Below, piece by piece: positions 15,301 through 50,447 of a stretch of 64,000 nucleotides of DNA; within the stretch, counting starts at the first letter, position 1; every line of letters starts with the position of its first letter. The translations under genes were made by a program, and so were the position numbers. This DNA comes from a virus, in IMG/VR virus record IMGVR_UViG_3300009099_000001; one strand, given 5' to 3'. The notes below the pieces were generated by a model, which saw only the letters and a program-made list of their open reading frames with translations, ran no database searches and was not told the origin of the DNA.

Positions 15301-18300
15301 GAGGCTCTGCACAGAGCAAGGCCACATTCAGTGTGGGAGGGCATGGAGAGGCCGGCGTGGATGGATTTGATGGACCAACAGGCTGAGGCCGACAGTCAGG
15401 CCGCCATCGATCAATTCTTCGCGCCGTGGCGCAATCTGTTCGACGGCTTGCGGCAGAAATGGGAAGAATTCCTAGGGCCGACATCGGAACTGCGCCAGAA
15501 GTTGAGCGACGTCTGGACGAAGTTCAAGACGTTCGTACAGACCCTCGTACAGACCGCTATCGACATGGCGGCGGGCGATCCTGAGAACCGCACATGGGAC
15601 AACTTCAAGGCCGCGTTGTCCGGCGACTTCGCCGCCTTGCTGGATGCCGGCGGCGAACTCTTCCTGGGCATCCAAAACACGTGGAACGCCTTTCGGGCGC
15701 GGGTATGGACTTGGCTGACGGGATCGCCGCCGCTGGGTACGCCCGAGACACTCATCCCGGATCTGGAAGACCCCGACTATCTGACGAAACTCTTGGAGTT
15801 CCAGCCGCCGGCCCGCATTCCGATTTGGGACGATTTGCAAGAAATCATCCAAGAGGGCTGGCAGTTGCTCTTGGCCGCAGGGTCGGCGCTGTGGACGAAC
15901 ATCAAGGCCACATGGACGGATTTCGGGTCTCGGGTCTGGGATTGGCTCAAGGGCGCGGCGATTGCCGTGACCGGCGGCGGGGACGACGACGTGCCCATGT
16001 GGAAGAAGATCCGCAACTTCATCGCCGGCTGGTTCGCCGCGATCTTCGTGTCGGGGTCTGCGCTATGGAAGGGGTTGCGAGCGATCTGGACAGTGTTCGG
16101 GACGATGGCTTGGAACTGGTTCAAGGGCCTGGTGATTCCGGCGGGAACCGACCCTGGCACCATTACGCTCTGGGATGCCGTAGTCGCCAAGATCGGCGCC
16201 TGGCTCGGCAAGGCGTGGGACGACGCGGGCACGTTCTGGACAGACTTGCAGACCCATTGGGATGCGTTTACGAAGGACGTCTGGGATTGGGTGAAGGAAC
16301 GCCGGATCAAGGCCGGCGCCGATCCGGAAAACATCACCATGTGGACTGCCGTTACCGGGACGATTGCCGGCTGGTGGGATGCGGCGTTGGCCACGGGGCA
16401 ATCGCTATGGACCCGGCTAGGGACCCATTGGGACAGCTTCAGCACGCGGGTCTGGGCTTGGGTCGTCGCCCGGCGTATCCAGGCTGGCGAGGCTGGCGGC
16501 AGCATGTGGAACCGCATTACGGCCAAGGTTTCGGGATGGTGGAACGCAGCGTTGCAAAAGGGCACGTCCCTATGGGACTCGCTGGGCGACGCGTGGGACA
16601 CGTTCGAGGCGCAGATTTGGACTTGGGCGATGGGGTTGGTCGTTGCAGCGGGCGAGACGCCGGCGGAAGGGGCGGGCACGTGGGCCTTGGTGCTACAAGC
16701 CTTAGGGTTGCAGTTTGCCAAAGCGGTAGGCCCAGACTCGCAATTCCGCAAGGACATTGACGCGGCCTGGGACAAGACGAACACTGCGATCAGCAATCGC
16801 ATCCGCACTACGTTCTTGCAGAACGTGGAAGAGCTGGATGCAGCGGGCGCAGCCCCGGAACTCAAGGCGCCTACCGACGAAATGATCCAAGACTGGGCGG
16901 CGGACAGTTTGTTTCCGGCCGCGGCGGAAGCCGGATTGTCGGCCATGACAGCGAATGTAGCCGCGCATATTGCCGGCGAACACGGGATCCTGGGACAAAT
17001 GTATACCGCATTCACGTTTGGACTGGGACACACCTTAGGCAAAATCATCGCCCAAATCAACCTGGCGACGGAAGTCATCAAGTATGCGATCTTGGGGATG
17101 TTCGTGCCGGGGTTTCGGGATCTGAATACCCAAATCAACGCGATCCTGAAAGCCGGCGATCAGGGGTTGACGACGGGGCTGCTCGCTGGCATCGAGACCG
17201 AGCAACAGCGGTATCGGGAAATGTTGGCCCCCGTTACGGAACCTCTCGGTATCGAACTGTTCGAGCCGGTCATGACGTGGGGCGAATTCGGACAAGAAGT
17301 GATGCCCCTATGGAGGCCGCCGCCCCCGCGTCCGGCGCTCCCCGAAGACACTTCTTTTGAGGACACCGTAAATCGACAAATCGCCCAAGGCGAAGAGGCG
17401 GCCAAGAAGGGCAACCGCGGCTGGCAGCAGCAACTTACGGAAAATCTGGGGAACGCTTTGCAAAACTTCCAGCCTGCCGCATTGACCGGCGGCCCTGTGT
17501 TTTCCGTGTTGCCGTCCCTGCTAATGTCGTCGCTCCAGGCCGGGCTCACGGCGGCCTGGGACGGCTTCGCTGCCTGGTTCCAAGAGACCCTTGCGACCCC
17601 CTTCGCCGGCTTGTGGACCGACATGTTCCAGGTCGACATCTTGGGCACAGTCGGGACGTTCTTCACCGATTTGGGCACGGACATTACGGAAGGCTTCACG
17701 GGCCTCAAAGACAATTGGGACGCTACCGTAAAGGGCTTCAGGGCGAAGGTCGAGAGTCTTTGGTCCGGCCTACGCCTGTATGCCCTGATCCAATGGAACC
17801 TGCTCGTTACGAGTTGGAAGGTTTGGTGGACAGCGCGCAAGAACGGGTTTGACGAGGTAGTCAAGGGGTTCAAGGAAAAGGTCGAAACCTTCTGGACTGC
17901 GCTCAAGGATTTCATCGTAGAGACTTGGGAGGCGGCTTGGGAGGCGGTGAAGGCGGCTATCGTAGGCGACAAGGCCAAAGGGGTTCTGGGACTGTGGGAT
18001 CGTCTAGGCGAAGGGCTGACGCTGGTCATGGACAAAGTCACGGCCCAAATCGACCGGATCACGAATTCCATCGAAGGGGCGATTGCGGCGTTCAACCGTC
18101 TCAAGGAACTCAATCCCTTGGGCTATTTCAAGCGCAAGGCGCGGGAAGCCGAGGAAACGCAGGTGCGCATCCAAGCCGCCGGGTTCGCGGGCATGATGCC
18201 GTTTGCCGAAGAAGAAGCGGAAGAAGTGAAGAAAGGCGGCAACTGGTTCACGCGCTTGCTGGGCTTCCAGCATGGCACGAAACATCATCCGGGCGGGCTG

Positions 18301-18537
18301 TCTTGGGTCGGCGAGGCGGGCCCGGAACTAATTGCGCCGCCGCGGGGCAGTCAGGTCTTTAGTCACGACGACTCGATGCGGATGATGCGCGAACAGAACG
18401 CACTGCTCCGGGAACAGACCCGGTTGCTGCAAGACCTCGAGCAAAGCCAAGTCAACGTGACTGCGCACTACGACGCCCAGCCGGACGAAGACCTGCTGAG
18501 TCAAGTGCAATACGCCCGGGCCTTGTTGCGGGCATAA
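12340..18537 (+). CDS. Tape measure protein (2065 aa)
   Basis: N-terminal TMP core (ELGRVTSFSAGDATQAMLELVKGGF...AMANQGLKGQRAGTTLGRVITEL) and transmembrane segments. About 25 Trp-rich ~45-aa repeats (LW..I...W..F...VW.WI). C-terminal GGLSWVGEAGPELI block. Strong RBS AAGGAGG. Confidence 0.8.
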   Translation: MLRMANLGTMRGDIEIDVSGAQASLARLQESVQQQSQQIGQKMQRIGGALSLGVTAPIAGLAAAAAKEFGTFDENLRLIRQMTSATGDTMDAMREKALELGRVTSFSAGDATQAMLELVKGGFDTEKALGAISGTLNLAAASGIDLASSAEVVTDVLATFNLPASALDSTVDAMAGSVNNAAQGFGELTYAMQTAAAPFSNAGFSVQDLSAALAVMANQGLKGQRAGTTLGRVITELSNPRNDAAAGMIHDLGINVFNAAGEFNSFRDILGDMEQGLKGMTAEQRTQSLATIFGGDAIKAVLPLLNAGVAGFDELKAAVQEEGSAMGLAEASMASFNGALKYIQGTIGTVLISAIEPLAETIGTVIRKVADFIAKFATLPPGARQWIGIFAGIAAAAGPFLLILGKVVAVGGAIFAALNPVTLVILGVSAAVLLLSNRFKWFAGLRQRLAKWLEIGPIERMQKAFEGFSAYTERLKGIDGLWAKIRDIWHVGLGDVESNLWTGIAQFLHGGDMSKVQDMAGTWDEIPQLFIEKFKAAFKKGGPVAKAIRKIWQKFTRGLTQFFSRLGFKTSEADPGGVWHPWADRLQRGFADLFDHNSELRQKLREQWEFFTEDVFRWFTENLLPPGSQVAIGDWGAMGSALVDQFRSLFRRDGPVHRAIRDVWWSFSNNILLWLSPAGADIGRGRAHWEDESIFKLWAEAIQDRFASMFGRNGNVRRAMQSTWEDFEVGAWNWIARRVLPADTEIGSDTEGTWSEIGDAIGDRWDDALAKGSDLWGDIKEEWDDFAERAWKWIAKQEIEPDADRKADGIWDKVSAALGKTWEKVFGTENTLWNDITAAWQAFRTSISTLVQTALNIEFPEGAGVIETWRSVTEQLRTGWENAVGPGSALRTAMSNVWQGLKTFLGGLVRGRLPLKIDRKPKWFEELAEREKGTPWEYMSQAEFRKAQARHTNELARWQEQVDQFTDPASHLGGMKPEAHAAVLEEWEALHRARPHSVWEGMERPAWMDLMDQQAEADSQAAIDQFFAPWRNLFDGLRQKWEEFLGPTSELRQKLSDVWTKFKTFVQTLVQTAIDMAAGDPENRTWDNFKAALSGDFAALLDAGGELFLGIQNTWNAFRARVWTWLTGSPPLGTPETLIPDLEDPDYLTKLLEFQPPARIPIWDDLQEIIQEGWQLLLAAGSALWTNIKATWTDFGSRVWDWLKGAAIAVTGGGDDDVPMWKKIRNFIAGWFAAIFVSGSALWKGLRAIWTVFGTMAWNWFKGLVIPAGTDPGTITLWDAVVAKIGAWLGKAWDDAGTFWTDLQTHWDAFTKDVWDWVKERRIKAGADPENITMWTAVTGTIAGWWDAALATGQSLWTRLGTHWDSFSTRVWAWVVARRIQAGEAGGSMWNRITAKVSGWWNAALQKGTSLWDSLGDAWDTFEAQIWTWAMGLVVAAGETPAEGAGTWALVLQALGLQFAKAVGPDSQFRKDIDAAWDKTNTAISNRIRTTFLQNVEELDAAGAAPELKAPTDEMIQDWAADSLFPAAAEAGLSAMTANVAAHIAGEHGILGQMYTAFTFGLGHTLGKIIAQINLATEVIKYAILGMFVPGFRDLNTQINAILKAGDQGLTTGLLAGIETEQQRYREMLAPVTEPLGIELFEPVMTWGEFGQEVMPLWRPPPPRPALPEDTSFEDTVNRQIAQGEEAAKKGNRGWQQQLTENLGNALQNFQPAALTGGPVFSVLPSLLMSSLQAGLTAAWDGFAAWFQETLATPFAGLWTDMFQVDILGTVGTFFTDLGTDITEGFTGLKDNWDATVKGFRAKVESLWSGLRLYALIQWNLLVTSWKVWWTARKNGFDEVVKGFKEKVETFWTALKDFIVETWEAAWEAVKAAIVGDKAKGVLGLWDRLGEGLTLVMDKVTAQIDRITNSIEGAIAAFNRLKELNPLGYFKRKAREAEETQVRIQAAGFAGMMPFAEEEAEEVKKGGNWFTRLLGFQHGTKHHPGGLSWVGEAGPELIAPPRGSQVFSHDDSMRMMREQNALLREQTRLLQDLEQSQVNVTAHYDAQPDEDLLSQVQYARALLRA

Positions 18538-36643: not shown

Positions 36644-38908
36644 ATGGCCGTATCCGCATCGCAGACGCTACTCGGCCATTGGCTGCCCACAGAACGCATC
36701 AAACTCGCGGTCGCCTACGACATCGCCCTGGCGCATGAAATCCTGCGCCTGCACACGTTCCGACTGCTCTTTGGGGCAATGGACCCAGGGACCGGGTTCC
36801 TCGAACCTAGCCGCCTGAAAGACGCCCACGCCGAGACGAAGCCGCTGCTCAAGCGAACCCGCGAGACGATCCGAGATAGTCTGCGCTGGGGCATCGAACA
36901 ATCCGTGATGGTCGGCCTGGCCCGCGGCATGGACGCCCATGACCGCTGGTTTCGGGCACCCATCGCAGAGAGCTACACGGCCTTGCGACGGCAGTTGGTC
37001 GTCCAAGGTTGGCAGATCTATGGCCCTACGAGCGTAGGGGAGCGTGCCGGTCGGTTGTCCCAGTGGCTGTGGCGGGAACATGCTGTCCGTCGCTGCATCA
37101 TGAAAAAAATGCTGCTCGAGCAACACGAGGGCACCAGTGCTTGGCAAGCCGCCAAAGCCCTGGAATCGATGTTCGGGACGCCCATCGAAGGGCCACGCTG
37201 GTTGTCGACCCGCTTGCAACGCCTGACTCCCAAAGACCGCCTGCAATCGCAACGCGGGTTAGTCACGTCGCAGTTGGCCGCCGCCGAAGCCGCACAGGGC
37301 AAGTTCCGCGGCCTCAGTTACCGCACCTTGCGCATTGCCCGCACCGAAATCAGCCGTACCCATCACGCAGTCAACAAAGAACTGTATGCAATCCAACCGT
37401 GGGTGACGGGAGTCCGCTGGAGGCTGTCGCCGGGCCATCCGCAAATCGACATCTGCGACGAACTGGCGGCGAAAGGTGTGTATTCCAAGTACGACGTGCC
37501 CCACTTGCCACATCCGCATTGCATGTGTTTCTTGACTCCCGAGACGATGCCCCGAGACCAATGGGACCAGAAAGTGGCGGGTCATGCCACGGGTAAGAAC
37601 CAGTTCCTCAGCAACTATCAAGACTTCGTGGGCTACAGCCCGATCCGCGCCCCCGCCATCCCGGAAAAGCAACGGGGACCATTTCGGGATGCATTGCAGC
37701 GATGGATGGGCGACAAACCACCGCAAAGTCCCCAGACCCGCCAGTTGGCCCAAGAGTACCGGGAACTGCGCTGGTGGGACCGCAAGATGGGCGGCTTACG
37801 CCGCGCCTTCGGGCGTGGTCGACAGCCAGAAATCGACCGGGCCGTGAAGGCCCAGAAAGGTGATGCCTGGTTGCGCCGACAACCCCTGTTGGCGCATGCG
37901 GCTATCGACCCGTCGGTCCTCAACATCCGCAACAACATGGATGAGTGCAAGAACCTTACTGCGGGAGCGCCGCCGCCGAAACCCTTGCCCCCTCTCTCTA
38001 CCCGTGTTGCAGGCCCGCGGCGCAAGGGGGCGACGCCGAGTGCCGCGCGGGTCCGCAAACGCATTCGGCGGTTGCAGCAGGTATCGCAGCGGCAAAGAGA
38101 ACAGATCCGGGCGCAAATTGGCCAAGACGAAGCCACATGGCGGGCCCTGTTTTCGGAAAACCAAGGCGAATACGACGACGACGTTTTTGCCGCGCGCAAA
38201 CAGCGCATGAAGAAACTGCGACAACGCATCGAGGCATCGACCGCGCGCCTCGCCGCTGTGCGCCAAAAGGCCCACGACAAGATCAACGCGTCCATTCGCC
38301 ATCACTCAGAACGCGGCGTACAGATTGAGATATACGATACGGAAATGCCGGATCGCGAAAAGAAGATATTGCGACATTACATCACAGAATTACAGCAATT
38401 GGTACCGGACCGCGGGGAAACCTATCGGGTAGGATGGGGGTGGGAGTCCAACATATCTCGGGAGTTCTTTGTCAATTTTTCTGACGAGCCGCGCCGTGGC
38501 GTGCTGTACGTCAGCGACAACAGCACACCTGCTACCTGGATACACGAGTTAGGGCACCTCATCGACGAAAATCCCCGCATAATGCAGAAAAGCGTTAATC
38601 ACTTGTACTCCCGTACTCAATCCGAAAAGGCCCGCTCCTTAAAAGACATCACGGGCCAAAATTACAAGTCCAAAGAAACAGCCCGGCCTGATGAATTTTT
38701 CCATGCCTACGTCGGCAAAGATTATTCAGGCCAGAAAGGGTGGGTTCCCAATCCCTATGCGGAAACTGCGGCGCAGAACCCGCGCATTGATGGCACCGAA
38801 ATCGTAAGTATGGGACTCGAAGAGATGTATAGCAATCCGGTTCGTTTGGCCGAAGAAGACCCCCGCCTCTTCGATTTTATTTGGAACGAGATCATGCACG
38901 GAGATTGA
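36644..38908 (+). CDS. MuF / SPP1 gp7-like head morphogenesis protein fused to a C-terminal HExxH metallopeptidase-like domain
   Basis: 754 aa. MuF block YRTLRIARTEISRTHHAVN...LSPGHPQIDICDELA...PHLPHPHCMCFL. C-terminal ATWIHELGHLIDENP. The last ~600 nt are visibly AT-richer. Confidence 0.7.
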   Translation: MAVSASQTLLGHWLPTERIKLAVAYDIALAHEILRLHTFRLLFGAMDPGTGFLEPSRLKDAHAETKPLLKRTRETIRDSLRWGIEQSVMVGLARGMDAHDRWFRAPIAESYTALRRQLVVQGWQIYGPTSVGERAGRLSQWLWREHAVRRCIMKKMLLEQHEGTSAWQAAKALESMFGTPIEGPRWLSTRLQRLTPKDRLQSQRGLVTSQLAAAEAAQGKFRGLSYRTLRIARTEISRTHHAVNKELYAIQPWVTGVRWRLSPGHPQIDICDELAAKGVYSKYDVPHLPHPHCMCFLTPETMPRDQWDQKVAGHATGKNQFLSNYQDFVGYSPIRAPAIPEKQRGPFRDALQRWMGDKPPQSPQTRQLAQEYRELRWWDRKMGGLRRAFGRGRQPEIDRAVKAQKGDAWLRRQPLLAHAAIDPSVLNIRNNMDECKNLTAGAPPPKPLPPLSTRVAGPRRKGATPSAARVRKRIRRLQQVSQRQREQIRAQIGQDEATWRALFSENQGEYDDDVFAARKQRMKKLRQRIEASTARLAAVRQKAHDKINASIRHHSERGVQIEIYDTEMPDREKKILRHYITELQQLVPDRGETYRVGWGWESNISREFFVNFSDEPRRGVLYVSDNSTPATWIHELGHLIDENPRIMQKSVNHLYSRTQSEKARSLKDITGQNYKSKETARPDEFFHAYVGKDYSGQKGWVPNPYAETAAQNPRIDGTEIVSMGLEEMYSNPVRLAEEDPRLFDFIWNEIMHGD

Positions 38909-40299: not shown

Positions 40300-40530
40300 C
40301 TAGGAGGGCCGGTATCCGTGGGGATACCGCTTGACCTCTTCGGTCAAGTCGGCGGAAATCAAGGTCGCGTAGGCTTGGCCGCCGGAACGCAGTTCCTTGT
40401 GGGTCACGGCCATAGCCTCTTGCCAGCGACCCTCGAGCAGAACCGAGCCGGGGTCGGCGTCTACGAAATCTTCGTAGACTTCGATCCATTCCCCGGTCTG
40501 CGGGTTCTTGCGGTGGTGGGTGATGTACAT
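40300..40530 (-). CDS. Small hypothetical protein
   Basis: 76 aa with leader CACACAGGAGTATCGC. Confidence 0.6.
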   Translation of the reverse strand: MYITHHRKNPQTGEWIEVYEDFVDADPGSVLLEGRWQEAMAVTHKELRSGGQAYATLISADLTEEVKRYPHGYRPS

Positions 40531-40562
40531 GCGATACTCCTGTGTGTTTCTCTATGCTTCCC

Positions 40563-40591
40563 ATATTACCACAAGACGGAATCCACTGCAA
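40563..40591 (-). promoter_or_regulatory. Early promoter cassette copy (TTGCAG-N17-TGG-TAATAT)
   Basis: -10 at 40563-40568, -35 at 40586-40591. Confidence 0.6.
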
Positions 40592-40776
40592 GGAGCAATC
40601 GCAGATGGGCCCGAGATTGCCTCCAATGGGTCTCGCCGTCAGCGGGGAGCATAGGGTACAATCCCTGTATCGCCGCGCTCGACACCGGGTATCGGCTAAC
40701 ACTTGGCAGGGTGAAAGCGGTTCCTCCCTTCTCGGCCCGCCGAAGCCCTCGGTCCCGCGGCGAGTCTTCCTCCGTC

Positions 40777-41616
40777 ATGTCGAGCATCTACCGCGCCCTG
40801 TCACTCGGAGCCGGCGTGCAGTCCAGCGTCCTTGCCTTGCGTTTCGCCCAGCAGGACCCTGAGTTGCTGGACCTTGGCTATCCGCCGCCGGACGTCGCCC
40901 TGTTCGCCGATACGCAGTGGGAACCACAGGGAATATACCGTCATCTGGACTGGCTGGAAACGCAACTGACATTTCCCTTGGTCCGTGTCACGGCGGGAAA
41001 TCTCAAGGCCAACGCGACGGCGGGCGTCAATCTCGCGGGCAAGCCTTGGCTGGACATCCCCATCCACTTTCGGGACGGTTCCCGGAAAATGATGCAGCGG
41101 CGGCAATGTACCGCCGACTACAAGATCCGGCCTCTGTACCGCGCATTGCGCAAATTGGCGGGGGGGGTACCGAAACGACCCTTTCCCAAGGACATCACGG
41201 TGGAGATGTATCTCGGTATCAGTTTCGATGAAATCCAGCGCATGAAGCCGAGCCGGGAACGCTGGCTTACCAACCGCTTTCCCCTGGTCGATTTGCGCAT
41301 GACGCGTGCGCAATGCCGTGACTGGTTTGCGGAACGGTATCCCGGCAGGTCCTTGGCGCGCTCCGCGTGTATCGTCTGCCCGCTACACAGTGCTGCCGAT
41401 TGGCAGCATCTACGCACACACGAACCCGCCGCTTGGCGGGAAGCCGTGGAGTTCGATGCCGTGCTGCGAGACGGCCATCCGAGCCGCGGACGTATCCGGG
41501 GAGACATGTATCTCCATCATCGCTGCGAACCCATCGAGGTGGCCGTCGCACAGGATTCGGACGACAGTCCGCCCTCGCTCTTCGATCTGGAGTGCGAAGG
41601 CATGTGCGGCGTGTAG
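40777..41616 (+). CDS. PAPS reductase-like (PP-loop superfamily) protein, phage type
   Basis: 280 aa from ATG 40777. Variant PP-loop LSLGAGVQSSVLAL, QCTADYKIRP, and Cys-rich C-terminus CIVCP...ECEGMCGV. The start is uncertain because an in-frame GTG occurs at 40711. Confidence 0.6.
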   Translation: MSSIYRALSLGAGVQSSVLALRFAQQDPELLDLGYPPPDVALFADTQWEPQGIYRHLDWLETQLTFPLVRVTAGNLKANATAGVNLAGKPWLDIPIHFRDGSRKMMQRRQCTADYKIRPLYRALRKLAGGVPKRPFPKDITVEMYLGISFDEIQRMKPSRERWLTNRFPLVDLRMTRAQCRDWFAERYPGRSLARSACIVCPLHSAADWQHLRTHEPAAWREAVEFDAVLRDGHPSRGRIRGDMYLHHRCEPIEVAVAQDSDDSPPSLFDLECEGMCGV

Positions 41617-41980: not shown

Positions 41981-42050
41981 GTCGAGATCGGGTGCACGAC
42001 GAAAGCGGATTGGATCCGTGAGTCGGAGCGGGTCGGGTATAATCCCTAGT

Positions 42051-42100
42051 GCCCCCGGTGGCCATTTGGACGACGGCCTCTAGTAGCCGGGGGCTTTGGC
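42051..42100 (+). ncRNA. Candidate ~50-nt small RNA (TATAAT-N7-nested hairpin-U tract)
   Basis: TATAAT at 42038-42043 in the context GGGTATAATCCCT (compare GGGTACAATCCCT at 40654-40666). GCCCCCGG (42051-42058) pairs with CCGGGGGC (42087-42094), with an inner GGCC/GGCC stem, then TTTGGCTTG. Confidence 0.3.
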
Positions 42101-42122
42101 TTGCGGAATGAGAACGCGCTAG

Positions 42123-42197
42123 GGTCTCGGCGGGAGTCGAACCCGCCCAATTGGATGAAGCCATGCCTATCTGTCGCCCAGACATGTCCATTCGTTA
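42123..42197 (-). other. tRNA-like remnant (T-arm and 3' acceptor only)
   Basis: GCGGG-TTCGACT-CCCGC is identical to the T-arm of the tRNA at 44306-44377. I could not fold an acceptor 5' strand, D-arm or anticodon arm. Confidence 0.3.
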
Positions 42198-42269
42198 CAG
42201 CCCCGCCGGGAATTGAACCCGGTACCTCGCCGTGGACAGTAGCGGATGCAACCGTTACACTTCGGGGCT
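42198..42269 (-). tRNA. tRNA, anticodon GUC (Asp-type), non-canonical C37
   Basis: Hand-folded cloverleaf. Acceptor AGCCCCG/CGGGGCT, D-stem GTGT/GCAT with loop AACGGTT. Anticodon stem CGCTA/CGGCG (A-C at the loop end), loop CTGTCCA. T-arm CCGGG-TTCAATT-CCCGG. No encoded CCA. Confidence 0.6.
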
Positions 42270-42290
42270 TTGGCTCCTATTCCGACAATC

Positions 42291-42578
42291 TCAGATATGG
42301 CGTTGATAGCCCCGGTTGCGGCCTCGGCTGTTGTTCTTGTTGCGTTTTGTGGCCCCGCGGCGTTGCCCTCGGGATCGTTGGCTTTTGGCGGCGGCTTCCC
42401 GCTCCAACTGTTCTTTTCGGCGCTGCGCCTTCGCTTCCCGCAGGGCGAGTTTCGCTGGGCTAATGTCGGGCGGCGTTGCAGACTTAGGTGGGGCGGGGGA
42501 TTTCCGCTTGCTGACCGTGCGCCGAAAATGGCGGCGGTTGCCCTGTTGGCGGGCTTTACTGGCTTTGGGCGTTCGCAT
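42291..42578 (-). CDS. Arg/Lys-rich small protein (paralogue family)
   Basis: 95 aa with RBS AAGGAGGAA. REAKAQRRKEQLEREAAAKSQRSRGQRRGATKRNKNNSRGRNRG. Confidence 0.55.
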   Translation of the reverse strand: MRTPKASKARQQGNRRHFRRTVSKRKSPAPPKSATPPDISPAKLALREAKAQRRKEQLEREAAAKSQRSRGQRRGATKRNKNNSRGRNRGYQRHI

Positions 42579-42837
42579 TTCCTCCTTGGGAACGCAAGTC
42601 GGGAATAGGCAACTCTGCCTCGGCGAAGGTGGCGAAGGTCAGCGACCACAATTCCAGGCCATCAGCCCGCCTATAGCCCCGTAGTTGCAAGAACCGCGGG
42701 TTGGGGATCAGATACTCTTGCAACAGTGCCCCTTGCGCAGCGAGGCCGGCTGCAAGGCTGTCGTAGTACCGCTGTTCCTTACGCGTACGCCCGAAGATGG
42801 GCACGGCAAAGATATCCACGGTACAGGTCTCATCCAT
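42556..42837 (-). CDS. Hypothetical protein
   Basis: 93-aa ORF with an 8-nt overlap with the upstream gene. Confidence 0.5.
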   Translation of the reverse strand: MDETCTVDIFAVPIFGRTRKEQRYYDSLAAGLAAQGALLQEYLIPNPRFLQLRGYRRADGLELWSLTFATFAEAELPIPDLRSQGGNANAQSQ

Positions 42838-43093
42838 CCTCTACTCCTTCGGCATAGCGCACGAACGTCGTCTGCCACAGTTTGCGCTCGTCGTTGAGCC
42901 AGGCCGTCAATTCGCAGTACAGCAGTTGTGGGTCGGACTGGTGCTTTTGGACGAGCGTATTCCAGCAGTCCCACGTATGCCGGCGGACATCGACGCCCGG
43001 CAATGTGCGAAATGTGATCTGCTCTCGATAATGCGCCGTCGCTCCCTCCTGCAGAGCGAAGACATGCACGACGACGGCATCGGGCTTAGGCAT
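42830..43093 (-). CDS. Hypothetical protein
   Basis: 87 aa from ATG 43093 (MPKPDAVVVHVF...), overlapping the upstream stop by 8 nt. Confidence 0.5.
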   Translation of the reverse strand: MPKPDAVVVHVFALQEGATAHYREQITFRTLPGVDVRRHTWDCWNTLVQKHQSDPQLLYCELTAWLNDERKLWQTTFVRYAEGVEDG

Positions 43094-43361
43094 GGGCTTG
43101 CTGCGGCTTACGGCGGCGGACATTCACCCGTTGTCTGGGGGGGGCAAGTATCGACAAGCCCCGCAAATGCTTGGTGTGTGGATGCTTACCCCCGCTCTGT
43201 TTCGCCCGACGTTTCTTGCGATTATGCGCAGTCTGCTCTGCTTGCAGGGCGGTACGGGCGGCTTTGGCCTCTAGCCAACGGCTGGCTTGCGGCAAGGGAG
43301 TGCGGGTACGGGAACGTCTAGGCATTGCCACGGTCCGGGAACCCGTCTTCTTCCTGCCCAT
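43086..43361 (-). CDS. Arg/Lys-rich small protein (paralogue family)
   Basis: 91 aa from ATG 43361 behind GGAGGCAGAG. MGRKKTGSRTVAMPRRSRT...HNRKKRRAKQSGGKH. Starts 30 nt after the suppressor-like tRNA. Confidence 0.55.
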   Translation of the reverse strand: MGRKKTGSRTVAMPRRSRTRTPLPQASRWLEAKAARTALQAEQTAHNRKKRRAKQSGGKHPHTKHLRGLSILAPPRQRVNVRRRKPQQAHA

Positions 43362-43390
43362 CTCTGCCTCCGGTCTGTGGTTTCCAGTCA

Positions 43391-43462
43391 TAGCCCCGAC
43401 GGGAATCGAACCCGCTAGAACCGCGTCTAAAGCACGGCGTGTATCCATTGCACCTCGGGGCC
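43391..43462 (-). tRNA. Suppressor-type tRNA, anticodon UUA (reads UAA ochre)
   Basis: Clean hand-folded cloverleaf. Acceptor GGCCCCG/CGGGGCT (G1-U72), D-stem GTG/CAC with loop AATGGAT. Anticodon stem CCGTG/CGCGG with canonical 7-nt loop C-T-TTA-G-A (U33, purine 37). Variable region TTCTA. T-arm GCGGG-TTCGATT-CCCGT. Confidence 0.65.
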
Positions 43463-43476
43463 TATAGTTGTTCGGG

Positions 43477-43689
43477 TCAACCCCAAGGACCGCCCCATTT
43501 GCTACCGCTGCGCCGTTTTTTGCCCGCCCGTTTATTGCGACGCGCCGTTGTTTTGCGGCGGCTTCGATTCCAGGCTTCCGCCCTGAGCCATTCCTTGCGG
43601 CGCAACTCCTTGGCGGCCGCCCGCGCCTCCTGTTCCGTGCGATGTTCGGTTGCATCTTGGCGCGTGTGCGTTCTGCGCTTCCTGCCCAT
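43477..43689 (-). CDS. Arg/Lys-rich small protein (paralogue family)
   Basis: 70 aa with RBS AGGAGGAAGAG. MGRKRRTHTRQ...AAAKELRRKEWLRAEAWNRSRRKTTARRNKRAGKKRR. Confidence 0.55.
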   Translation of the reverse strand: MGRKRRTHTRQDATEHRTEQEARAAAKELRRKEWLRAEAWNRSRRKTTARRNKRAGKKRRSGSKWGGPWG

Positions 43690-43716
43690 CTCTTCCTCCT
43701 GTATATGATGTCTGGG

Positions 43717-43945
43717 CTATTTCACTTTGCCCCGCGTCCCGTGACGGCGTATCCGCCGCCCGCCCCGATTGTTTTTGTTTCGCCGCGTCGCTCCCCTCCT
43801 GCGGGCGAGTTTGTGTTTGCGCTTGTTTCCCGCGGTGTCAGGCTGCTTGTTCCCGCCGTCGTTGTGCTTTGGCCGCGGCCGCGGCGTGCTTGGCCGGATG
43901 CGCGGTCGGGTCCACGGCATCCGGGTCGGGCACATCATGCGTCAT
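43717..43945 (-). pseudogene. Frameshifted member of the Arg/Lys-rich family
   Basis: ATG 43945 behind AGGAGGAAAGC opens a 35-codon frame (MTHDVPDPDAVDPTAHPAKHAAAAAKAQRRREQAA). The family C-terminus (ARRRGATRRNKNNRGGRRIRR) continues in another frame (track ORF 43717-43938). Confidence 0.4.
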
Positions 43946-43974
43946 GCTTTCCTCCTATGCTGGATTTCGTCAGG

Positions 43975-44041
43975 GGCCTATTACGGGGATCGAACCCGCC
44001 GCCGTCCCAGGAACAGAGGGACTGCGCCGCCCAGGATAGGC
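43975..44041 (-). tRNA. tRNA-like gene, possible anticodon GUU (Asn-type), truncated D-arm
   Basis: Acceptor GCCTATC/AATAGGC (one C-A mismatch). Perfect anticodon stem GTCCC/GGGAC with loop T-CTGTTCC-T. T-arm GCGGG-TTCGATC-CCCGT. Only ~12 nt lie where the D-arm should be, so it may be a pseudogene. Confidence 0.3.
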
Positions 44042-44305
44042 CGCGTCGTCAGGGCACGATTTCAAGATGCTGGATTGAGGTCGTCATATGTGTGCTCCTG
44101 TAGTCCTGTGTTTCAATCCCCCGCCGCCGGGAATCGCTCCGGTCGTCGCCCCATATGACAACTCACGGACCCACGGCGGGGGAACCCTCTTCGTACCTTG
44201 CAGTACTGTCGCGAAACGGGGCGCTACCGTCTCCTATGCCCAGCGGAAATCAATAGGCACGGCCCTCCAGATGCCAGGATAAAACCAGGGCGACTTGGGC
44301 GCCCA

Positions 44306-44377
44306 CAGTCCCGGCGGGAGTCGAACCCGCTACCCTGCGCGATACAGACGCCCATGCAGCCGTTACACTTCGGGACT
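44306..44377 (-). tRNA. tRNA, anticodon GUA (Tyr-type, short variable arm), non-canonical U37
   Basis: Acceptor AGTCCCG/CGGGACT, D-arm GTGT-AACGGCT-GCAT. Anticodon stem GGCGT/GCGCA, loop CTGTATC. T-arm GCGGG-TTCGACT-CCCGC. The 5' end abuts the stop codon of 44378-44818. Confidence 0.55.
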
Positions 44378-44818
44378 TCATTCGGTCTCCTGCTGCGGAA
44401 ACGACGGCGGTAGATTGCGCACAATGCGCACAGTCTCCACACTGAGAGCGATCAGACGTCGCAGATGGTCAATCAACCTTGCCGGCTCGTCGGCGAACCA
44501 GGCGTTGGGGTCATTCACGATCCCGCTCTCCTTGTCTTGACGGATGTAGAGGCGATCCCGTGCCCAATCCAACGGCGAGCGACCATTGACGATATAGGCA
44601 TGAGCGTCGTCGGGAATGTCTCGCAGCGTGACATGCGGCGTTACGTGCAGCACACTGCGGTCAGCATTGCGTCGCCAATCGTGCCCGCAATCCCGTTGCT
44701 GCTGCTCAGCCGCACAAAGGGCACAGCCCCACCGCATCGGACGCATACCCAGACGATACGGCTCGACGGCATCGGGATCGACTTCCAGGCGCATAGGGCG
44801 CGGTGTCGATTGGGTCAC
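44378..44818 (-). CDS. Stand-alone protein resembling the distal part of the Type ISP restriction-enzyme C-terminal specificity domain
   Basis: 146 aa with GTG start in a GTGA overlap. YIVNGRSPLDWARDRLYIRQDKESGIVNDPNAWF...LIALSVETVRIVRNLP. Confidence 0.5.
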   Translation of the reverse strand: MTQSTPRPMRLEVDPDAVEPYRLGMRPMRWGCALCAAEQQQRDCGHDWRRNADRSVLHVTPHVTLRDIPDDAHAYIVNGRSPLDWARDRLYIRQDKESGIVNDPNAWFADEPARLIDHLRRLIALSVETVRIVRNLPPSFPQQETE

Positions 44819-45258
44819 AGCAACCTGGCTTGGGTTACTTCACCGATAGCGGCGTGATCTAGAGATCGATAGATGTCTTCGATATGCACGAGTGAGTCAT
44901 ACTGACACCAAGCAGTCTGAATCTGCTTCCAGTGTTTGCCGTCAGCGGGAAAATGCACCTTCACCCAATCTCGCTGCGCGTCGTAATCCCCCTCCAACTC
45001 TACGACAAGCCAATCCTGAAACGTCCGTGAAGGTTGCATCAGCGCCGTCTCGGGCGGCAGCACGAAATAAGGGCCCCGCCGAGGATCCAACCGGGAGTTA
45101 AACTCTATGATCGCGCGTTTGACTTGCGCAGTGAGCTGCGCCTTGTCGTAATTCCACAGCCACGCGTCGCAGTTGGTCTTAACCCCGTTGGAAAAGCACC
45201 GAAATACGGCTCCGCCTGATGCTGTTTCCTGAACACTTTTTATGGTAGACATCCGCAC
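44815..45258 (-). CDS. Stand-alone protein resembling the proximal part of the Type ISP C-terminal domain (paralogue 2)
   Basis: 147 aa. VFRCFSNGVKTNCDAWLWNYDKAQL...IIEFNSRL...FQDWLVVE. Paralogous to 45264-45710. Confidence 0.45.
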   Translation of the reverse strand: MRMSTIKSVQETASGGAVFRCFSNGVKTNCDAWLWNYDKAQLTAQVKRAIIEFNSRLDPRRGPYFVLPPETALMQPSRTFQDWLVVELEGDYDAQRDWVKVHFPADGKHWKQIQTAWCQYDSLVHIEDIYRSLDHAAIGEVTQARLL

Positions 45259-45263
45259 ACTAT

Positions 45264-45710
45264 TTATAGCAACGGATCTTGGCGCAAGACCCCGGCCGCT
45301 GTTTGGTCTAAGGCGTTCAGCACCGCCTTCATGGGTACGAGATCCTCAAAGCGACACCACCCTGTAGATGTGTTTGTCCAATGCCGCCCGTCTGCCGCAA
45401 ACCTCACTTCGACTGCATCGCGTGTGCGGTCGTAACCGCCTACGATTTCCACGATCAGCCAATCTGCAAAATTCCGCGCCGGATGAGAGATGTAGGCATT
45501 GGGAGGCAGCATCCAATGGCTTCCCCAACACGCATCCAGAGCTGCGTTGTAGGCCACGATTTGCGCTTTGGTCTGAACCGTCTGGGCACCGAGATCATAG
45601 TTCCAAACCCACGCGTCGTTGTTTGTGCATACGCCTCGACTATAGACACGGAAAATCACGTTGGGGTTAAGGGCTTCTTCCCGGGCCTGAGATAGCGACT
45701 TCTTCGGCAT
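45264..45710 (-). CDS. Stand-alone protein resembling the proximal part of the Type ISP C-terminal domain (paralogue 1)
   Basis: 148 aa. IFRVYSRGVCTNNDAWVWNYDLGAQ...IVAYNAAL...FADWLIVE. Starts 3 nt after the csf3-like stop. Confidence 0.45.
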   Translation of the reverse strand: MPKKSLSQAREEALNPNVIFRVYSRGVCTNNDAWVWNYDLGAQTVQTKAQIVAYNAALDACWGSHWMLPPNAYISHPARNFADWLIVEIVGGYDRTRDAVEVRFAADGRHWTNTSTGWCRFEDLVPMKAVLNALDQTAAGVLRQDPLL

Positions 45711-45713
45711 CGT

Positions 45714-46532
45714 CTACAACTCCCGCATAGCCCCTAGCCAGTCCATATCGGCGGCTTCGTCCAAATGCATGACGGGCCGGGGGTTGTCCGTCCCGTCATG
45801 GGGCACGTCTTCCGCCCCGACCAACTGTCGGGCCGTGCGATACGGGCTGGGCCGGCAATAGGCGAACCAGGGCAGATGCCAGTAGGGGGGCGTCCACGGC
45901 AGATATTGATAGACGGGCGGGAAGACGTCGAAATCGTCGCCCCGGATGTCTCGGCCATGCAGATGCGCAAAGGGCACGGTACGTCCCGTCAGAACCAAAT
46001 CTCCCGCATCCGTGGGTGCTTGGATAGGCGCCACCTGCCATTGGGCGACGCGGCCACGGCCCGCCTTGGCATCGGCGCCGACATAGGTGATGATTTGGAG
46101 TTCCGCCTGCAAGCGTTCCGGGTCGGCGAGAGCCAAGCACCCGATACGGGCAGTATGCGTCAAGCGGCGGCTCAACCGCTTCACCTTCCAGCGGCCCACC
46201 TTTTTCTGGACATTGCGCTGGCCGGGCCGTACCCGATGCATGCGATAGTCGGGGATACGGGTATGGGTGTAGACCGTGGAGTGCGTCACGGGCGTCTCGG
46301 GGACCAAAGGCGTACATGCCCAGAGAGGTTTGCCCTCAAGGGTATCCCGCAAGAACAAGGAGGGCAAATCGACAATCTGCAACCCGGCCTGCTGTGTGGA
46401 ACGGTCGAAGTAGAGGAATGACAGCATGCTGTCCAACTGCAGACTGTCTGCCGGGGCGTGCGTAATGTACGGCGTGATGAGCCGGGCTTGCACGTGTACG
46501 AGGGTGAAGGTCTGGGCACCTTGGAGAGACAT
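45714..46532 (-). CDS. csf3: Cas5-like RAMP protein (Csf3-like), type IV
   Basis: 272 aa. N-terminal beta-strand FTLVHVQARLITP, LDSMLSF, glycine-rich loop GADAKAGRGRVAQW. 1-nt TGATG overlap with the cysH-like gene. Confidence 0.55.
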   Translation of the reverse strand: MSLQGAQTFTLVHVQARLITPYITHAPADSLQLDSMLSFLYFDRSTQQAGLQIVDLPSLFLRDTLEGKPLWACTPLVPETPVTHSTVYTHTRIPDYRMHRVRPGQRNVQKKVGRWKVKRLSRRLTHTARIGCLALADPERLQAELQIITYVGADAKAGRGRVAQWQVAPIQAPTDAGDLVLTGRTVPFAHLHGRDIRGDDFDVFPPVYQYLPWTPPYWHLPWFAYCRPSPYRTARQLVGAEDVPHDGTDNPRPVMHLDEAADMDWLGAMREL

Positions 46533-47296
46533 CAGAATGGCGTATAGCCCGACTCGAACTTTTTCATGTCAGGTACCCGCTGCAATACGGCGGTCCAGGT
46601 CTGAGGCCACAGTTGACGAATGGCATCCACGGCCCCTGCTTGGATGGCGGGCAAATAGGTGAAGGGGCCGACTCGCTGTCGCTCCGGGGGAATGCCGGCA
46701 GCGCGCATGCGGTCGTACACGGCATTGTAGGGCACGGCATAGGCCGCCAGATAGGCCCAGATATCCGTGTCGGTCCAATCGTGCAACGGATTGCATACCA
46801 GCTGCGTAGATTTCCGCTGATACGCCGGTCCATGTCGCACGAAATGCCACGCCCGGTCTTGCGACTCGGTAGCCCGCAGTCCTAGCAACAAGCCTCGATA
46901 CCCCAACCGCACCCCGAGGGGCACGCCGTTGGGTTCCATGACCTGCAACGGCGGGTCAGGGTCGGGCGGCGGCCAATGGTCGAATTCCACGCCCGGCGCA
47001 ATCTCGTACCGCTGACGCACGGCCACATGGTGCAACAACGGCGTCTGGGCGACGAAGCGCCGGGTCTCGGGCAACACCGTGAACTCTTCGTCCTGATAGA
47101 GACCCGGCAATTGAGGGTCGATTTGGCGGGCCATGTGCAGCAGCACCGTGCTGTCCTTGCCGCCGGAAAAGGCAACTACGGTATCCGGGGTCTCGGCCAA
47201 GTGCGTACGGAGCAGGTCTTGGGCTTGCTGTACGCGCCGCCGGAAGAGATCCGTGCGGCTATGGGCTTGATAGCCGAGTCGGGTCAAACGGTCCAT
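46532..47296 (-). CDS. CysH-like PAPS reductase family protein (type IV-B accessory)
   Basis: 254 aa from ATG 47296, 2 nt after the csf2-like stop. Canonical PP-loop VVAFSGGKDSTVLLHMA. The 373-aa track ORF start is rejected. Confidence 0.7.
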   Translation of the reverse strand: MDRLTRLGYQAHSRTDLFRRRVQQAQDLLRTHLAETPDTVVAFSGGKDSTVLLHMARQIDPQLPGLYQDEEFTVLPETRRFVAQTPLLHHVAVRQRYEIAPGVEFDHWPPPDPDPPLQVMEPNGVPLGVRLGYRGLLLGLRATESQDRAWHFVRHGPAYQRKSTQLVCNPLHDWTDTDIWAYLAAYAVPYNAVYDRMRAAGIPPERQRVGPFTYLPAIQAGAVDAIRQLWPQTWTAVLQRVPDMKKFESGYTPF

Positions 47297-47298
47297 CG

Positions 47299-48144
47299 TC
47301 AGCTCAACTGCACGCGGTCCGTACCGAGGGTCCCGTCCAATAGGCCCTGCTGCATGGCGGCGTGATGCGTAGCGAGATGGTCCTGCCACGGGCCGATGTC
47401 CGTCGGCCCCTCCAACTGCTGCCAATGCACGCGGCCCCGACCCTGGCTGGCCCGCGCCCCGATGTATTGGTCCCAGGCTTGCAGTGCTGCCCTGCCCGCG
47501 GCGACGACTGCCGGCGTAGACCAGCGGTCGAAGAGCAGCTCGACCCAGATCTGGGTGCCGGCGGCCAACGTCTCGTACTGAAACAGCATTTGATTGCCGC
47601 TGGCGACGTCGCCCGTGCCCCGGGTGCGCACTTCGTCTTGGACCAGATCCCAAATGCTGATATCGGGCACCTCGAGTTCGGGGGCCAGCAGTCCCAATTT
47701 TTCTTGATTTTCCCGACAGACGACCAGAGCCAACACTTTGAGGTCGCTGCGGGGGAGCAGGAACGCGTCTACGCTGCCGCCGAGCAGCCGGAAGTTCGGA
47801 TAGAGATCGAAGATCTGTTGGGCGTACTCGTTTTCCGCCGCCGGCGCCTTGCTGCCCTGCTTGAGCGAGCCGCCGGCATACAGCAGATTGACCGCACTCT
47901 GGCTCAAGCCGCCCACCGGAATTTCCAGCTGTTGCAGCAGCCTGTCGGCCAAAGGCGTGCGCAGCATGACGCTGCGCAAGGCGTTGGCCGACAGGCAGGG
48001 CATGCGCACGGGTACGCCGTCAATCACCTCCAGTTGCCGCATAAAGAGCGTGGTGTTGCCTTGGGTGGACAGCGTATCGCCGTGGGCCACCGGGGAAAGG
48101 GTTTCGAGCCGCAGCGTGATACGCGGCGGGGCTTCCAGGGTCAT
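47299..48144 (-). CDS. csf2: Cas7-like RAMP protein (Csf2-like), type IV
   Basis: 281 aa. ITLRLETLSPVAHGD, MPCLSANALRSVMLR, FRLLGGS, C-terminal G-rich loop ARASQGRGRVHW. ATGA overlap with the cas11-like gene. Confidence 0.6.
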   Translation of the reverse strand: MTLEAPPRITLRLETLSPVAHGDTLSTQGNTTLFMRQLEVIDGVPVRMPCLSANALRSVMLRTPLADRLLQQLEIPVGGLSQSAVNLLYAGGSLKQGSKAPAAENEYAQQIFDLYPNFRLLGGSVDAFLLPRSDLKVLALVVCRENQEKLGLLAPELEVPDISIWDLVQDEVRTRGTGDVASGNQMLFQYETLAAGTQIWVELLFDRWSTPAVVAAGRAALQAWDQYIGARASQGRGRVHWQQLEGPTDIGPWQDHLATHHAAMQQGLLDGTLGTDRVQLS

Positions 48145-48533
48145 GAGGCGTCGTCTCCTTGGCGGCGTTGCCGCTTGTGGGTATCGTGGACATGCCGCGC
48201 CAACAGGATCAACGTCTGCGTCTGGGTCCGGTACAGTTGCAGCGCATCGGGCGACAGGTCACGTAACAGGGCGAGCAGCGTTTCGGGGCGACCCGCCGCC
48301 GGCCAACGCATATGCGCCGCCAGCTTGTCCCAGAAAAGACGGGGCCGGTCGCTCTGCAAAGCCGCAATGCGTACCCGGTCTTCGAGCCGCACGAAGCGGG
48401 TAGGACCCTCGAGCACGCCCACTCCGTCGTAGGTGTTGTACTGGTCGAGGGCATAGGCCAGCAGGGACACGGCTTGTTGTTCCGGCGGCGTCAAATCGGC
48501 AGTCAGGTCGGTGTCAAGGTCACTAATGTTCAC
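48141..48533 (-). CDS. cas11: Cas11-like small subunit (by position, size and helical composition)
   Basis: 130 aa with GTG start. Helical, basic C-terminus. Sits between the csf1-like and csf2-like genes. Confidence 0.45.
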   Translation of the reverse strand: MNISDLDTDLTADLTPPEQQAVSLLAYALDQYNTYDGVGVLEGPTRFVRLEDRVRIAALQSDRPRLFWDKLAAHMRWPAAGRPETLLALLRDLSPDALQLYRTQTQTLILLARHVHDTHKRQRRQGDDAS

Positions 48534-48638: not shown

Positions 48639-49346
48639 CTACTCCTCGGCATAGGCCATGAGCAACGCGGGGATGAAATCGGCGTCGTCGCGGCGGGCTG
48701 CCACTTGCATGGCGTCGGCTTCGTGGCGCCAGCGCAGATAGCGGGCCGGCGTCTTCCATTGCCCGCGCAATTCGCTCTTCGTCACGCCCTGCGCCAGCAA
48801 CCGGCTCATGCGCTGTACGAGGTCGTCTGTGCGCTGGGGATGCAGGGCGATGCGCTGCGAGATGTCGTAATGCAGCGCATGCACGTATACAGCGGCCTGA
48901 GACGTGAATTCGACCAACGGCCACAACCGCGGTTTGGTGTCTGCCGTCATCAAGCCCGCCCCGTAGCAACGAGGCGTCATGGTCGGCAAGAGCGTTTTCC
49001 ATGTCACCCTGTCGGGGTGCGGTGCGAACGTCGGCCAGACCACCGACCCGTCCTGTACCCAGAACGAGCGATTGCTGGTCATGCCTTTGGCTTTGGTATG
49101 CCCATAGAACCAGGCACACGCGGGGCAGATGTACCGGCTGAAGCGCAGATTTTCCGCATGCCGGGTGAAGGTGGACGTCTCGATTTGGGTCACGGGCACG
49201 GCTTGCGCCGTAGGCCGGCCACAGGTCGCACAAGGCGTATCCGGGGGCACGTCTTCCGGCTGATGTTTCGCCGCCAGGGGCGGGCAGCCCAAGGCTTCCC
49301 AGACGGCCTGGGATACGGAACGGGGCAACGCGGAAGACGACAGCAT
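48639..49346 (-). CDS. csf1: Csf1-like large subunit (two CxxC pairs), type IV
   Basis: 235 aa. PCATCGR...YICPACAWFYG zinc-ribbon-like pairs near the N-terminus. First gene behind its own promoter. Confidence 0.5.
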   Translation of the reverse strand: MLSSSALPRSVSQAVWEALGCPPLAAKHQPEDVPPDTPCATCGRPTAQAVPVTQIETSTFTRHAENLRFSRYICPACAWFYGHTKAKGMTSNRSFWVQDGSVVWPTFAPHPDRVTWKTLLPTMTPRCYGAGLMTADTKPRLWPLVEFTSQAAVYVHALHYDISQRIALHPQRTDDLVQRMSRLLAQGVTKSELRGQWKTPARYLRWRHEADAMQVAARRDDADFIPALLMAYAEE

Positions 49347-50387: not shown

Positions 50388-50415
50388 AGTGCCTCCTGTG
50401 TTATGGGGTTCTACG

Positions 50416-50447
50416 CGCTCAAGCCCGGCTTCCTGCCGGGCTGAGCG
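50416..50447 (-). other. Intergenic long hairpin with SD-like loop (family member)
   Basis: CGCTCAGCCCGG-CAGGAAG-CCGGGCTTGAGCG (about 13 bp). Confidence 0.5.

Follow-up and report, generated by a model that had tools for sequence, protein, structure and literature searches.

What are three small genes made of restriction-enzyme parts doing at the tail of a CRISPR-like operon in a phage? The question is raised by a stretch of 64,000 nucleotides from the IMG/VR virus record IMGVR_UViG_3300009099_000001 (the window, which here denotes the whole stretch that was analysed; the source contig is 96 kb). At positions 44378–45710, on the minus strand, three short open reading frames (ORFs), here called A, B and C, directly follow the type IV-B csf genes, which belong to an array-less effector of the CRISPR (clusters of regularly interspaced short palindromic repeats) kind. 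To judge from their sequences, the three are phage accessory genes built from target-recognition domain (TRD) parts of a bacterial Type ISP (LlaGI/LlaBIII-like) enzyme. Plausibly, the trio was acquired and has been selectively maintained, with a complex of A or B and C interfering with host Type ISP-like restriction.

45264–45710, minus strand: ORF A, 148 aa; putative TRD-start block at residues ~12–60, then an orphan beta-rich domain (60–148)
44815–45258, minus strand: ORF B, 147 aa (145 aa if the ATG at 45252 is the start); paralogue of A that shares its architecture
44378–44818, minus strand: ORF C, 146 aa; predicted stand-alone Type ISP TRD 'guide' subdomain

All three ORFs, and the peptide strings quoted from them in an earlier sequence-only reading of this DNA, are present as described there. 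That reading assigned the trio to Type ISP enzymes and named the lack of any such relationship as grounds for abandoning the assignment; matches in Pfam, in the PDB and by hhalign uphold it.

ORF C and the guide subdomain

The product of ORF C matches the Pfam family PF18135 (Type_ISP_C) with an E-value of 8e-13 and 48.6 bits over profile positions 271–341 of 342, and is the only one of the three proteins to pass the gathering threshold of this family (25.9 bits). Against PDB sequences (phmmer) it matches LlaGI (1.4e-13), LlaBIII (9e-13) and DrdV (2.8e-7) and no other enzymes. Residues 60–140 align with LlaGI/LlaBIII 1496–1574 (1324–1402 in the LlaGI chain numbering), and the aligned region of DrdV is 945–1026. 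The AlphaFold (AF2) model of C, based on an alignment of 37 homologues, has a mean predicted local distance difference test (pLDDT) score of 88.8. Foldseek searches with this model gave significant matches to LlaGI, LlaBIII and DrdV only, over 129–145 aligned columns with a query TM-score (TMq) of 0.56–0.64, and a search of the viral structures in BFVD gave nothing.

In LlaGI the guide subdomain comprises residues 1440–1578 and consists of a Greek-key sheet and helices with an inserted hairpin (PMC4872093). Of all parts of the TRD it is the best conserved, and it packs on the TRD core; it touches the DNA backbone and steers the DNA to the ATPase, with no role in sequence recognition, and its helical bundle has been likened to the conserved regions of HsdS (PMC4872093). 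The predicted secondary structure of C, with four strands, helices with a hairpin between them and a long C-terminal helix, agrees with this description. Together with the Pfam, PDB and Foldseek matches, this agreement indicates that C is a complete, stand-alone guide subdomain of a Type ISP TRD, as far as sequence and model can tell. The sequence-only reading had placed C at the end of the C-terminal domain of Type ISP enzymes, and this can now be put more exactly as the whole guide.

The nearest relatives of C are 55–61% identical to it and, in most of the loci inspected, form the C-termini of bacterial Type ISP genes. Those in three loci (L001, L004 and L036) belong to frameshift-fragmented Type ISP genes in low-coverage long-read assemblies, beside ORFs for Mrr, helicase, coupler and methyltransferase (MTase), while those in L002 and L003 are relics adjoining transposases. 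The relative in L035 is solitary: this 116-aa guide-only ORF (L035:6001–6351), from a closed bacterial genome at a high coverage of 354x, has TIR, integrase and AAA_16/TPR genes as neighbours, with neither a methylase nor a helicase beside it. Cells, too, may contain guide ORFs that stand alone. A tblastn search of the phage database with C returned two unannotated Listeria records only.

The level of identity to cellular Type ISP genes indicates that C was taken fairly recently, in relative terms, from such a gene. Homology between C and the bacterial genes starts ~9 nt upstream of the C start codon, so that the capture breakpoint would fall at the junction of B and C. C also carries a 12-residue insertion that is missing from its close Type ISP homologues. 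It has the form C32-x2-C35...C44-x-H46 (residues 32–46, window 44680–44725) and may be a zinc knuckle, in a part of the model with lower confidence (pLDDT about 67).

ORFs A and B as duplicated chimeras

ORFs A and B are 41% identical from end to end with one single-residue gap, in agreement with their earlier description as paralogues. The proportion of nonsynonymous differences (pN) is 0.41 and that of synonymous differences (pS) is 0.83, at which synonymous sites are saturated, and 32 of the 60 identical residues are encoded by different codons. These values point to real, old paralogues, both copies of which have been retained by purifying selection. A frameshifted pseudogene was considered as an alternative source of the two ORFs and rejected, as they are collinear paralogues, have their own starts near the start of the domain, and show a pN far below pS.

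The similarity of A and B to Type ISP enzymes is confined to their first portion. Matches to the Pfam Type_ISP_C profile cover positions 2–42 and fall under the cutoff (A, E 0.0084 and 15.7 bits; B, E 1.3e-4 and 21.6 bits), and the PADLOC profile REase_MTase_IIG matches A at 1.1e-5 and B at 1.5e-6. A profile of A and B has three matches in the PDB, namely LlaGI, DrdV and LlaBIII, all at the start of the TRD. Residues ~15–60 align with LlaGI/LlaBIII ~1220–1266, a region made up of the first core segment, including Loop IV, and the beginning of the jaw, and with DrdV 658–701. An hhalign comparison with seven complete TRDs gave a probability of 98.3% and an E-value of 1.2e-14, and is confident only over residues ~15–63; beyond residue ~63 the confidence drops to zero, and residues 60–148 do not align with the TRD. 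Residues ~12–60 are accordingly homologous to the first conserved TRD block (core strand, Loop IV and jaw start).

The remaining portion of A and B (residues 60–148) is tryptophan-rich and under selection. An AF2 model of A from a shallow alignment has a pLDDT of 54.8, with residues 63–135 scoring 65–85 and forming a small beta-barrel; SH3-like structural matches of this model were non-significant and were not used to assign a function. When 1.84 billion representatives were searched exhaustively with HMMER, 44 significant matches besides A and B themselves were obtained. Nearly all of these are to the block alone, and 9 of 10 that were checked carry Type_ISP_C at the right position. A single full-length relative, P0077, was found among these representatives. 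Since the alignment to the TRD ends at ~63 and the full-length form has one relative, A and B are not mere pieces of a specificity domain, as the sequence-only reading had supposed; that description holds for the start block at ~12–60 and fails for residues 60–148. They are better described, on the sequence comparisons, as chimeras of a kept ~50-residue TRD-start block and a lineage-specific beta-rich domain.

P0077 was found in L005 (JGI 3300007048, Ga0101643_100029), where a type III-A csm operon lies immediately upstream of it, and was considered as a second link to a CRISPR system. This was ruled out, because the start of its ORF coincides with a CRISPR repeat (the first ~20 residues being absent), because it sits in a 1.7-kb 'giant spacer' between repeats, and because neighbouring spacers match the phage of the window elsewhere. 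The normal repeat spacing in this array is 72–87 nt, followed by intervals of 1778, 528 and 1148 nt. The L005 spacer at 9825–9873 and pieces of the long 'spacers' match the window at 3327–3377, 50392–50447 and 38825–38899 and in the gene for A; a normal spacer is 86% identical to the phage of the window over 51 nt, and the match of the phage-like DNA within the gene for A covers 45327–45647. It therefore seems likely that L005 is an assembly chimera, in which the array has been joined to a related phage through identity between spacer and protospacer. If so, P0077 comes from a related phage and is a third member of the A/B family. In the fragment of the related phage, the 1.4 kb downstream of it contain no C-like gene.

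The three 'giant spacers', which lie at L005:9700–13470 and are 0.5–1.7 kb in length, are made of DNA of the related phage. On the assembly-chimera reading, a host with a type III-A system would target the group of phages to which that of the window belongs, and this same host has a spacer that falls within an A-like gene. Near the start of the window (139–4725, plus strand) there is a 1528-aa ORF with a DUF6923 repeat, which contains at least five copies of a sequence of ~50 nt; this repeated sequence is the target matched by the L005 CRISPR spacer.

The other parts of a Type ISP enzyme were not found. Pfam searches identify no nuclease (including Mrr_cat), helicase or methylase domain in A, B or C, as the sequence-only reading had stated. 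The 64-kb window contains no similarity to a helicase or ISP_coupler and no gamma-class N6-adenine methyltransferase (~32 kb of the 96-kb source contig lie outside it). With full-length Type ISP proteins as queries, A, B and C are the only places of similarity in the window. A complete TRD with core, jaw and guide on one polypeptide is likewise absent from the trio, C having the guide only and A and B having the first ~50 residues. The three proteins are close to neutral, with isoelectric points (pI) of 6.26, 6.41 and 6.20 and a content of D and E about equal to that of K and R. Beyond the restriction-modification profiles, none of them matches a PHROGs or PADLOC family.

Position in the type IV-B operon

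The trio occupies the end of a compact minus-strand operon that runs from 49346 to 44378 in the order csf1, cas11, csf2, cysH-like, csf3, A, B and C. The genes upstream of A are the following.

48639–49346, minus strand: csf1, type IV Cas8-like large subunit, with which the operon opens (PADLOC typeIV_Cas8/Csf1, 5.1e-11)
48141–48533, minus strand: cas11-like small subunit (PADLOC typeIV_Cas11, 2.6e-7)
47299–48144, minus strand: csf2, type IV Cas7 (PADLOC typeIV_Cas7, 5.9e-31)
46532–47296, minus strand: cysH-like gene of the PAPS-reductase family, translated from the ATG at 47296 (Pfam PAPS_reduct, 4.9e-16)
45714–46532, minus strand: csf3, type IV Cas5, directly upstream of A (PADLOC typeIV_Cas5, 1.3e-16; weak TIGR03116)

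Matches of the csf genes to TIGR03115 and TIGR03116 are weak. A second PAPS-reductase-like gene lies outside the operon (40318–41616, plus strand), with a match to phrog_424 at 1e-43 and no match in Pfam. There is no CRISPR array in the window, which fits subtype IV-B.

The junctions within the trio are exactly as the sequence-only reading had given them when it argued for tight coupling downstream of csf3. The TAG stop of csf3 is followed after 3 nt by the ATG of A; the TAA stop of A is followed after 5 nt by the GTG of B, with an ATG 6 nt further in; and B and C overlap in GTGA. Terminator-like hairpins on the minus strand occur only upstream of csf1 (49405–49384) and past the tRNA that follows C (44304–44288), and there is no such site between csf1 and C. 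In strand, in spacing and in the lack of an intervening terminator-like site, the trio and the csf genes thus have the features of a single transcription unit. The spacings of 3 nt, 5 nt and an overlap, with no terminator between, suggest that A, B and C are very probably co-transcribed with the csf genes and translationally coupled.

The same association is not seen in relatives of the operon. There are 48 Csf2 homologues at 30–49% identity, and 29 csf loci (L006–L034) were sampled by Csf2 homologues of 36–50% identity, comprising 17 IMG/VR phage contigs, 7 metagenome contigs and 5 contigs of metagenome-assembled genomes (MAGs). Searches with phmmer and with profile hidden Markov models run unfiltered (--max) detected no A, B or C homologue within 10 kb in any of the 29. 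Nor do any of the C homologues that were inspected lie near csf genes, all being Type ISP C-termini, relics or the solitary copy. The sequence-only reading had held that its proposal would fall if homologues were never linked to csf genes, and in this survey they were not. Recurrence across independent loci, as would be expected of a type IV-B accessory, was therefore not found; the association of the trio with type IV-B is a single case and not a conserved IV-B accessory. As the trio is absent from these 29 loci, it is of no use in explaining type IV-B function generally.

The gene order also sets the window apart. In relatives whose locus is sufficiently complete, the order is csf1-cas11-csf2-csf3-cysH (csf1 is displaced in L024), and csf3 is followed by cysH in 24 of the 29 loci, which are all those in which both genes were found. 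In the window the order is csf2-cysH-csf3 (45714–48144) followed by A-B-C, and the type IV-B operon thus appears to have been rearranged in this phage. Two further genes mark the window as part of a tailed-phage contig, and the first of them serves below for comparison of base composition.

12340–18537: tape-measure gene
36644–38908: head-morphogenesis gene

The GC content at third codon positions (GC3) is 0.61 in A and B and 0.66 in C, 0.74–0.81 in the five csf and cysH genes and 0.76 in the tape-measure gene. The lower GC3, the absence of the trio from all 29 relatives and the atypical gene order suggest that A-B-C was inserted later into the tail of the rearranged operon and is not a core part of type IV-B. 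The sampled loci (L006–L034) make up a sizeable type IV-B family with very variable downstream genes; 17 are on IMG/VR phage contigs, and others come from MAGs with the labels Gammaproteobacteria, Dehalococcoidia, Methylomirabilota and Gallionellaceae.

Past the end of C, the minus strand carries a cluster of tRNA genes and tRNA-like elements.

44306–44377, minus strand: tRNA-Tyr(gta)-like, starting 1 nt past the C stop and followed by the hairpin at 44304–44288 (relaxed ARAGORN)
43973–44041, minus strand: tRNA-Gly(tcc)
43391–43462, minus strand: suppressor-type tRNA(tta)
42198–42269, minus strand: tRNA-Asp(gtc)
near 41996–42072, minus strand: odd tRNA-like element

The tRNA-Tyr belongs to a family of 74-nt repeats that is common to two Rfam-supported tRNAs. 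In the cluster as a whole (41996–44377), only two members pass the default ARAGORN or Rfam thresholds. The spacers between its tRNAs are 0.5–1.1 kb in length, strongly AT-skewed (AT skew -0.27) and without convincing ORFs.

Possible functions and known systems

The two elements kept in the trio appear to be the conserved blocks from opposite ends of a TRD. Since the guide is the surface on which the core packs, a complex of A with C or of B with C is the most economical model. A and/or B would bind C via the native interface between core and guide, and the resulting complex would be a small, catalytically dead pseudo-TRD. This could interfere with a host Type ISP enzyme or with related Type IIL enzymes, either by competition for DNA or by mis-assembly with the clamp formed by the MTase and TRD of the enzyme. 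The trio would then be an anti-restriction decoy, co-expressed with the other presumed counter-defence module of the phage; decoy subunits were also one of the two roles put forward in the sequence-only reading. That an A–C and/or B–C complex acts in this manner against a host Type ISP or IIL enzyme is the explanation we favour, tentatively, as something possible rather than probable. Three intact ORFs, with A and B under selection, suggest genes that have been kept.

Several points weigh against this explanation. We know of no earlier example of such an inhibitor of Type ISP enzymes. The isolated subdomain must out-compete one that is covalently attached to the enzyme, the host Type ISP enzyme is itself an assumption of the model, and a methylase partner may lie in the ~32 kb of contig outside the window. 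A and C each stand alone in their 90% clusters, and the trio is unique to this contig; a blastn search with the locus against 50,697 phage records gave no match, and scans of IMG/VR with C, the A/B profile, P0077 and the neighbour of P0077 gave no relatives. A DNA mimic of the Ocr or ArdA type, another way in which A–C might have countered restriction, was ruled out by their near-neutral charge (pI 6.2–6.4). A broader formulation, in which a dead pseudo-TRD made of C as guide and A and B as alternative heads either poisons Type ISP/IIL enzymes or couples a DNA-handling surface to the IV-B complex, seems to us unlikely. If it were true, either version would be the first functional link between a module derived from restriction-modification and an array-less CRISPR-like effector.

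Other explanations place the function of the trio elsewhere. The fragments may have been neofunctionalised for a role apart from both restriction and type IV-B, for example as a small DNA- or RNA-binding complex acting on phage DNA or on the tRNA cluster. This would suit the novel, tryptophan-rich and selected portion of A and B (residues 60–148), the lineage-specific CxxC...CxH insertion in C, the tRNA-Tyr directly after the C stop, and the lack of a C-like gene within 1.4 kb downstream of P0077. However, C is still 55–61% identical to genuine Type ISP guides, suggesting that the original interaction surfaces have been kept, and there is no positive evidence for any specific alternative activity; we regard this explanation as possible but doubtful. 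A connection to type IV-B itself, with A–C as subunits or accessories of the Csf complex that provide its DNA-binding or DNA-steering module, is improbable in our view. It draws on the operon that the trio shares with csf1 to csf3 (3 nt, 5 nt, the GTGA overlap and no terminator-like site from csf1 to C), on the position of the trio in the slot after csf3 that cysH fills in relatives, and on the unsettled role of type IV-B and its partners (PMC8175902). Against these stand the 29 related loci without a homologue within 10 kb, the inspected C homologues, which lie in Type ISP genes or are solitary and never sit beside csf genes, and the GC3 of the trio, which is unlike that of the csf genes. The suggestion of a DNA-recognition adaptor in the sequence-only reading is further weakened by the identity of C, as sequence reading is not a function of the guide within the TRD (PMC4872093).

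The trio might also be a decaying relic, the 3' end of a captured Type ISP gene that is breaking up and has no function. The closest bacterial homologues of C are mostly fragments or relics beside transposases, the trio is known from one contig, and its GC3 has not been ameliorated to that of the phage. A relic would not be expected to consist of three intact ORFs in three frames with their own start codons and compact coupling, nor to include an old duplication (A and B) with both copies intact and pN far below pS, and a further intact relative, its 5' end cut by the contig junction only, is present in another phage fragment. These features make decay very unlikely. Equally hard to credit is a split restriction-modification specificity subunit, in which the three proteins would be trans-acting parts of an enzyme with a catalytic subunit encoded beyond the window, A and B serving as alternative 'heads' and C as the scaffold in the manner of HsdS. 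The conserved blocks at both TRD ends have been kept while the middle has been replaced, the helical bundle of the guide has been compared to the conserved regions of HsdS (PMC4872093), and ~32 kb of contig lie beyond the window. Yet homology to methylase, helicase and nuclease is absent throughout the 64 kb, and no TRD-core fold is seen in the C-terminal half of either A or B.

Should the trio prove functional, it would represent the domestication by a phage of host restriction-enzyme subdomains as small stand-alone proteins, a route of anti-restriction so far undescribed for Type ISP enzymes. It also offers a concrete test set of three small proteins and an enzyme family that is well studied and has solved structures. 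The decoy model makes a clear prediction, namely that cleavage or translocation by a LlaGI-type enzyme is inhibited.

The association had been thought undescribed, and no paper on it was found in the literature searched, which includes nothing combining Type ISP with type IV CRISPR, nothing mentioning PF18135 and no published type IV-B accessory of the Type_ISP_C kind. Reviews and the report on viral IV-B systems name a cysH-like gene as the only IV-B accessory. Type IV-B loci with a CysH-like gene (e.g. in Mycobacterium sp. JS623 and in phage and plasmid loci) have the same Csf1, Cas11, Csf2, Csf3 and CysH-like proteins and no array, and the locus in the window is carried by a mobile element, like type IV-B in the literature. 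Unlike the window, none of the related loci has a Type_ISP_C-like gene.

Among restriction enzymes, the closest are LlaGI and LlaBIII (PDB 5FFJ and 4XQK). C shares their guide (residues ~1440–1578) in sequence (E 1e-13) and in predicted fold over ~130 columns, and residues ~15–60 of A and B share the region ~1220–1266. In LlaGI and LlaBIII one polypeptide, over 1500 aa long, combines an Mrr nuclease, a superfamily 2 (SF2) ATPase, a coupler, an MTase and a complete TRD. The trio, in contrast, consists of three ~147-aa proteins, all lacking a catalytic domain; it is borne by a phage, its start block is duplicated, and most of the TRD core and jaw is gone or replaced. The Type IIL/IIG enzyme DrdV (PDB 7LO5; PADLOC REase_MTase_IIG) has both conserved TRD-end blocks in common with the trio, but is a 1029-aa nuclease–methylase fusion without a stand-alone guide and has no CRISPR-like association. 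Relict or solitary bacterial Type_ISP_C ORFs (e.g. P0013 in L003 and P0042 in L035) are also close to C. They are 100–250 aa, cover the guide region and are 55–60% identical to C; they are mostly frameshift fragments or lie beside transposases, are not paired with A- or B-like genes, and do not occur in phages or csf operons. The domain is thus a known one, and the architecture is new in three respects: the stand-alone guide, the duplicated chimeric start block and the position in a phage type IV-B operon.

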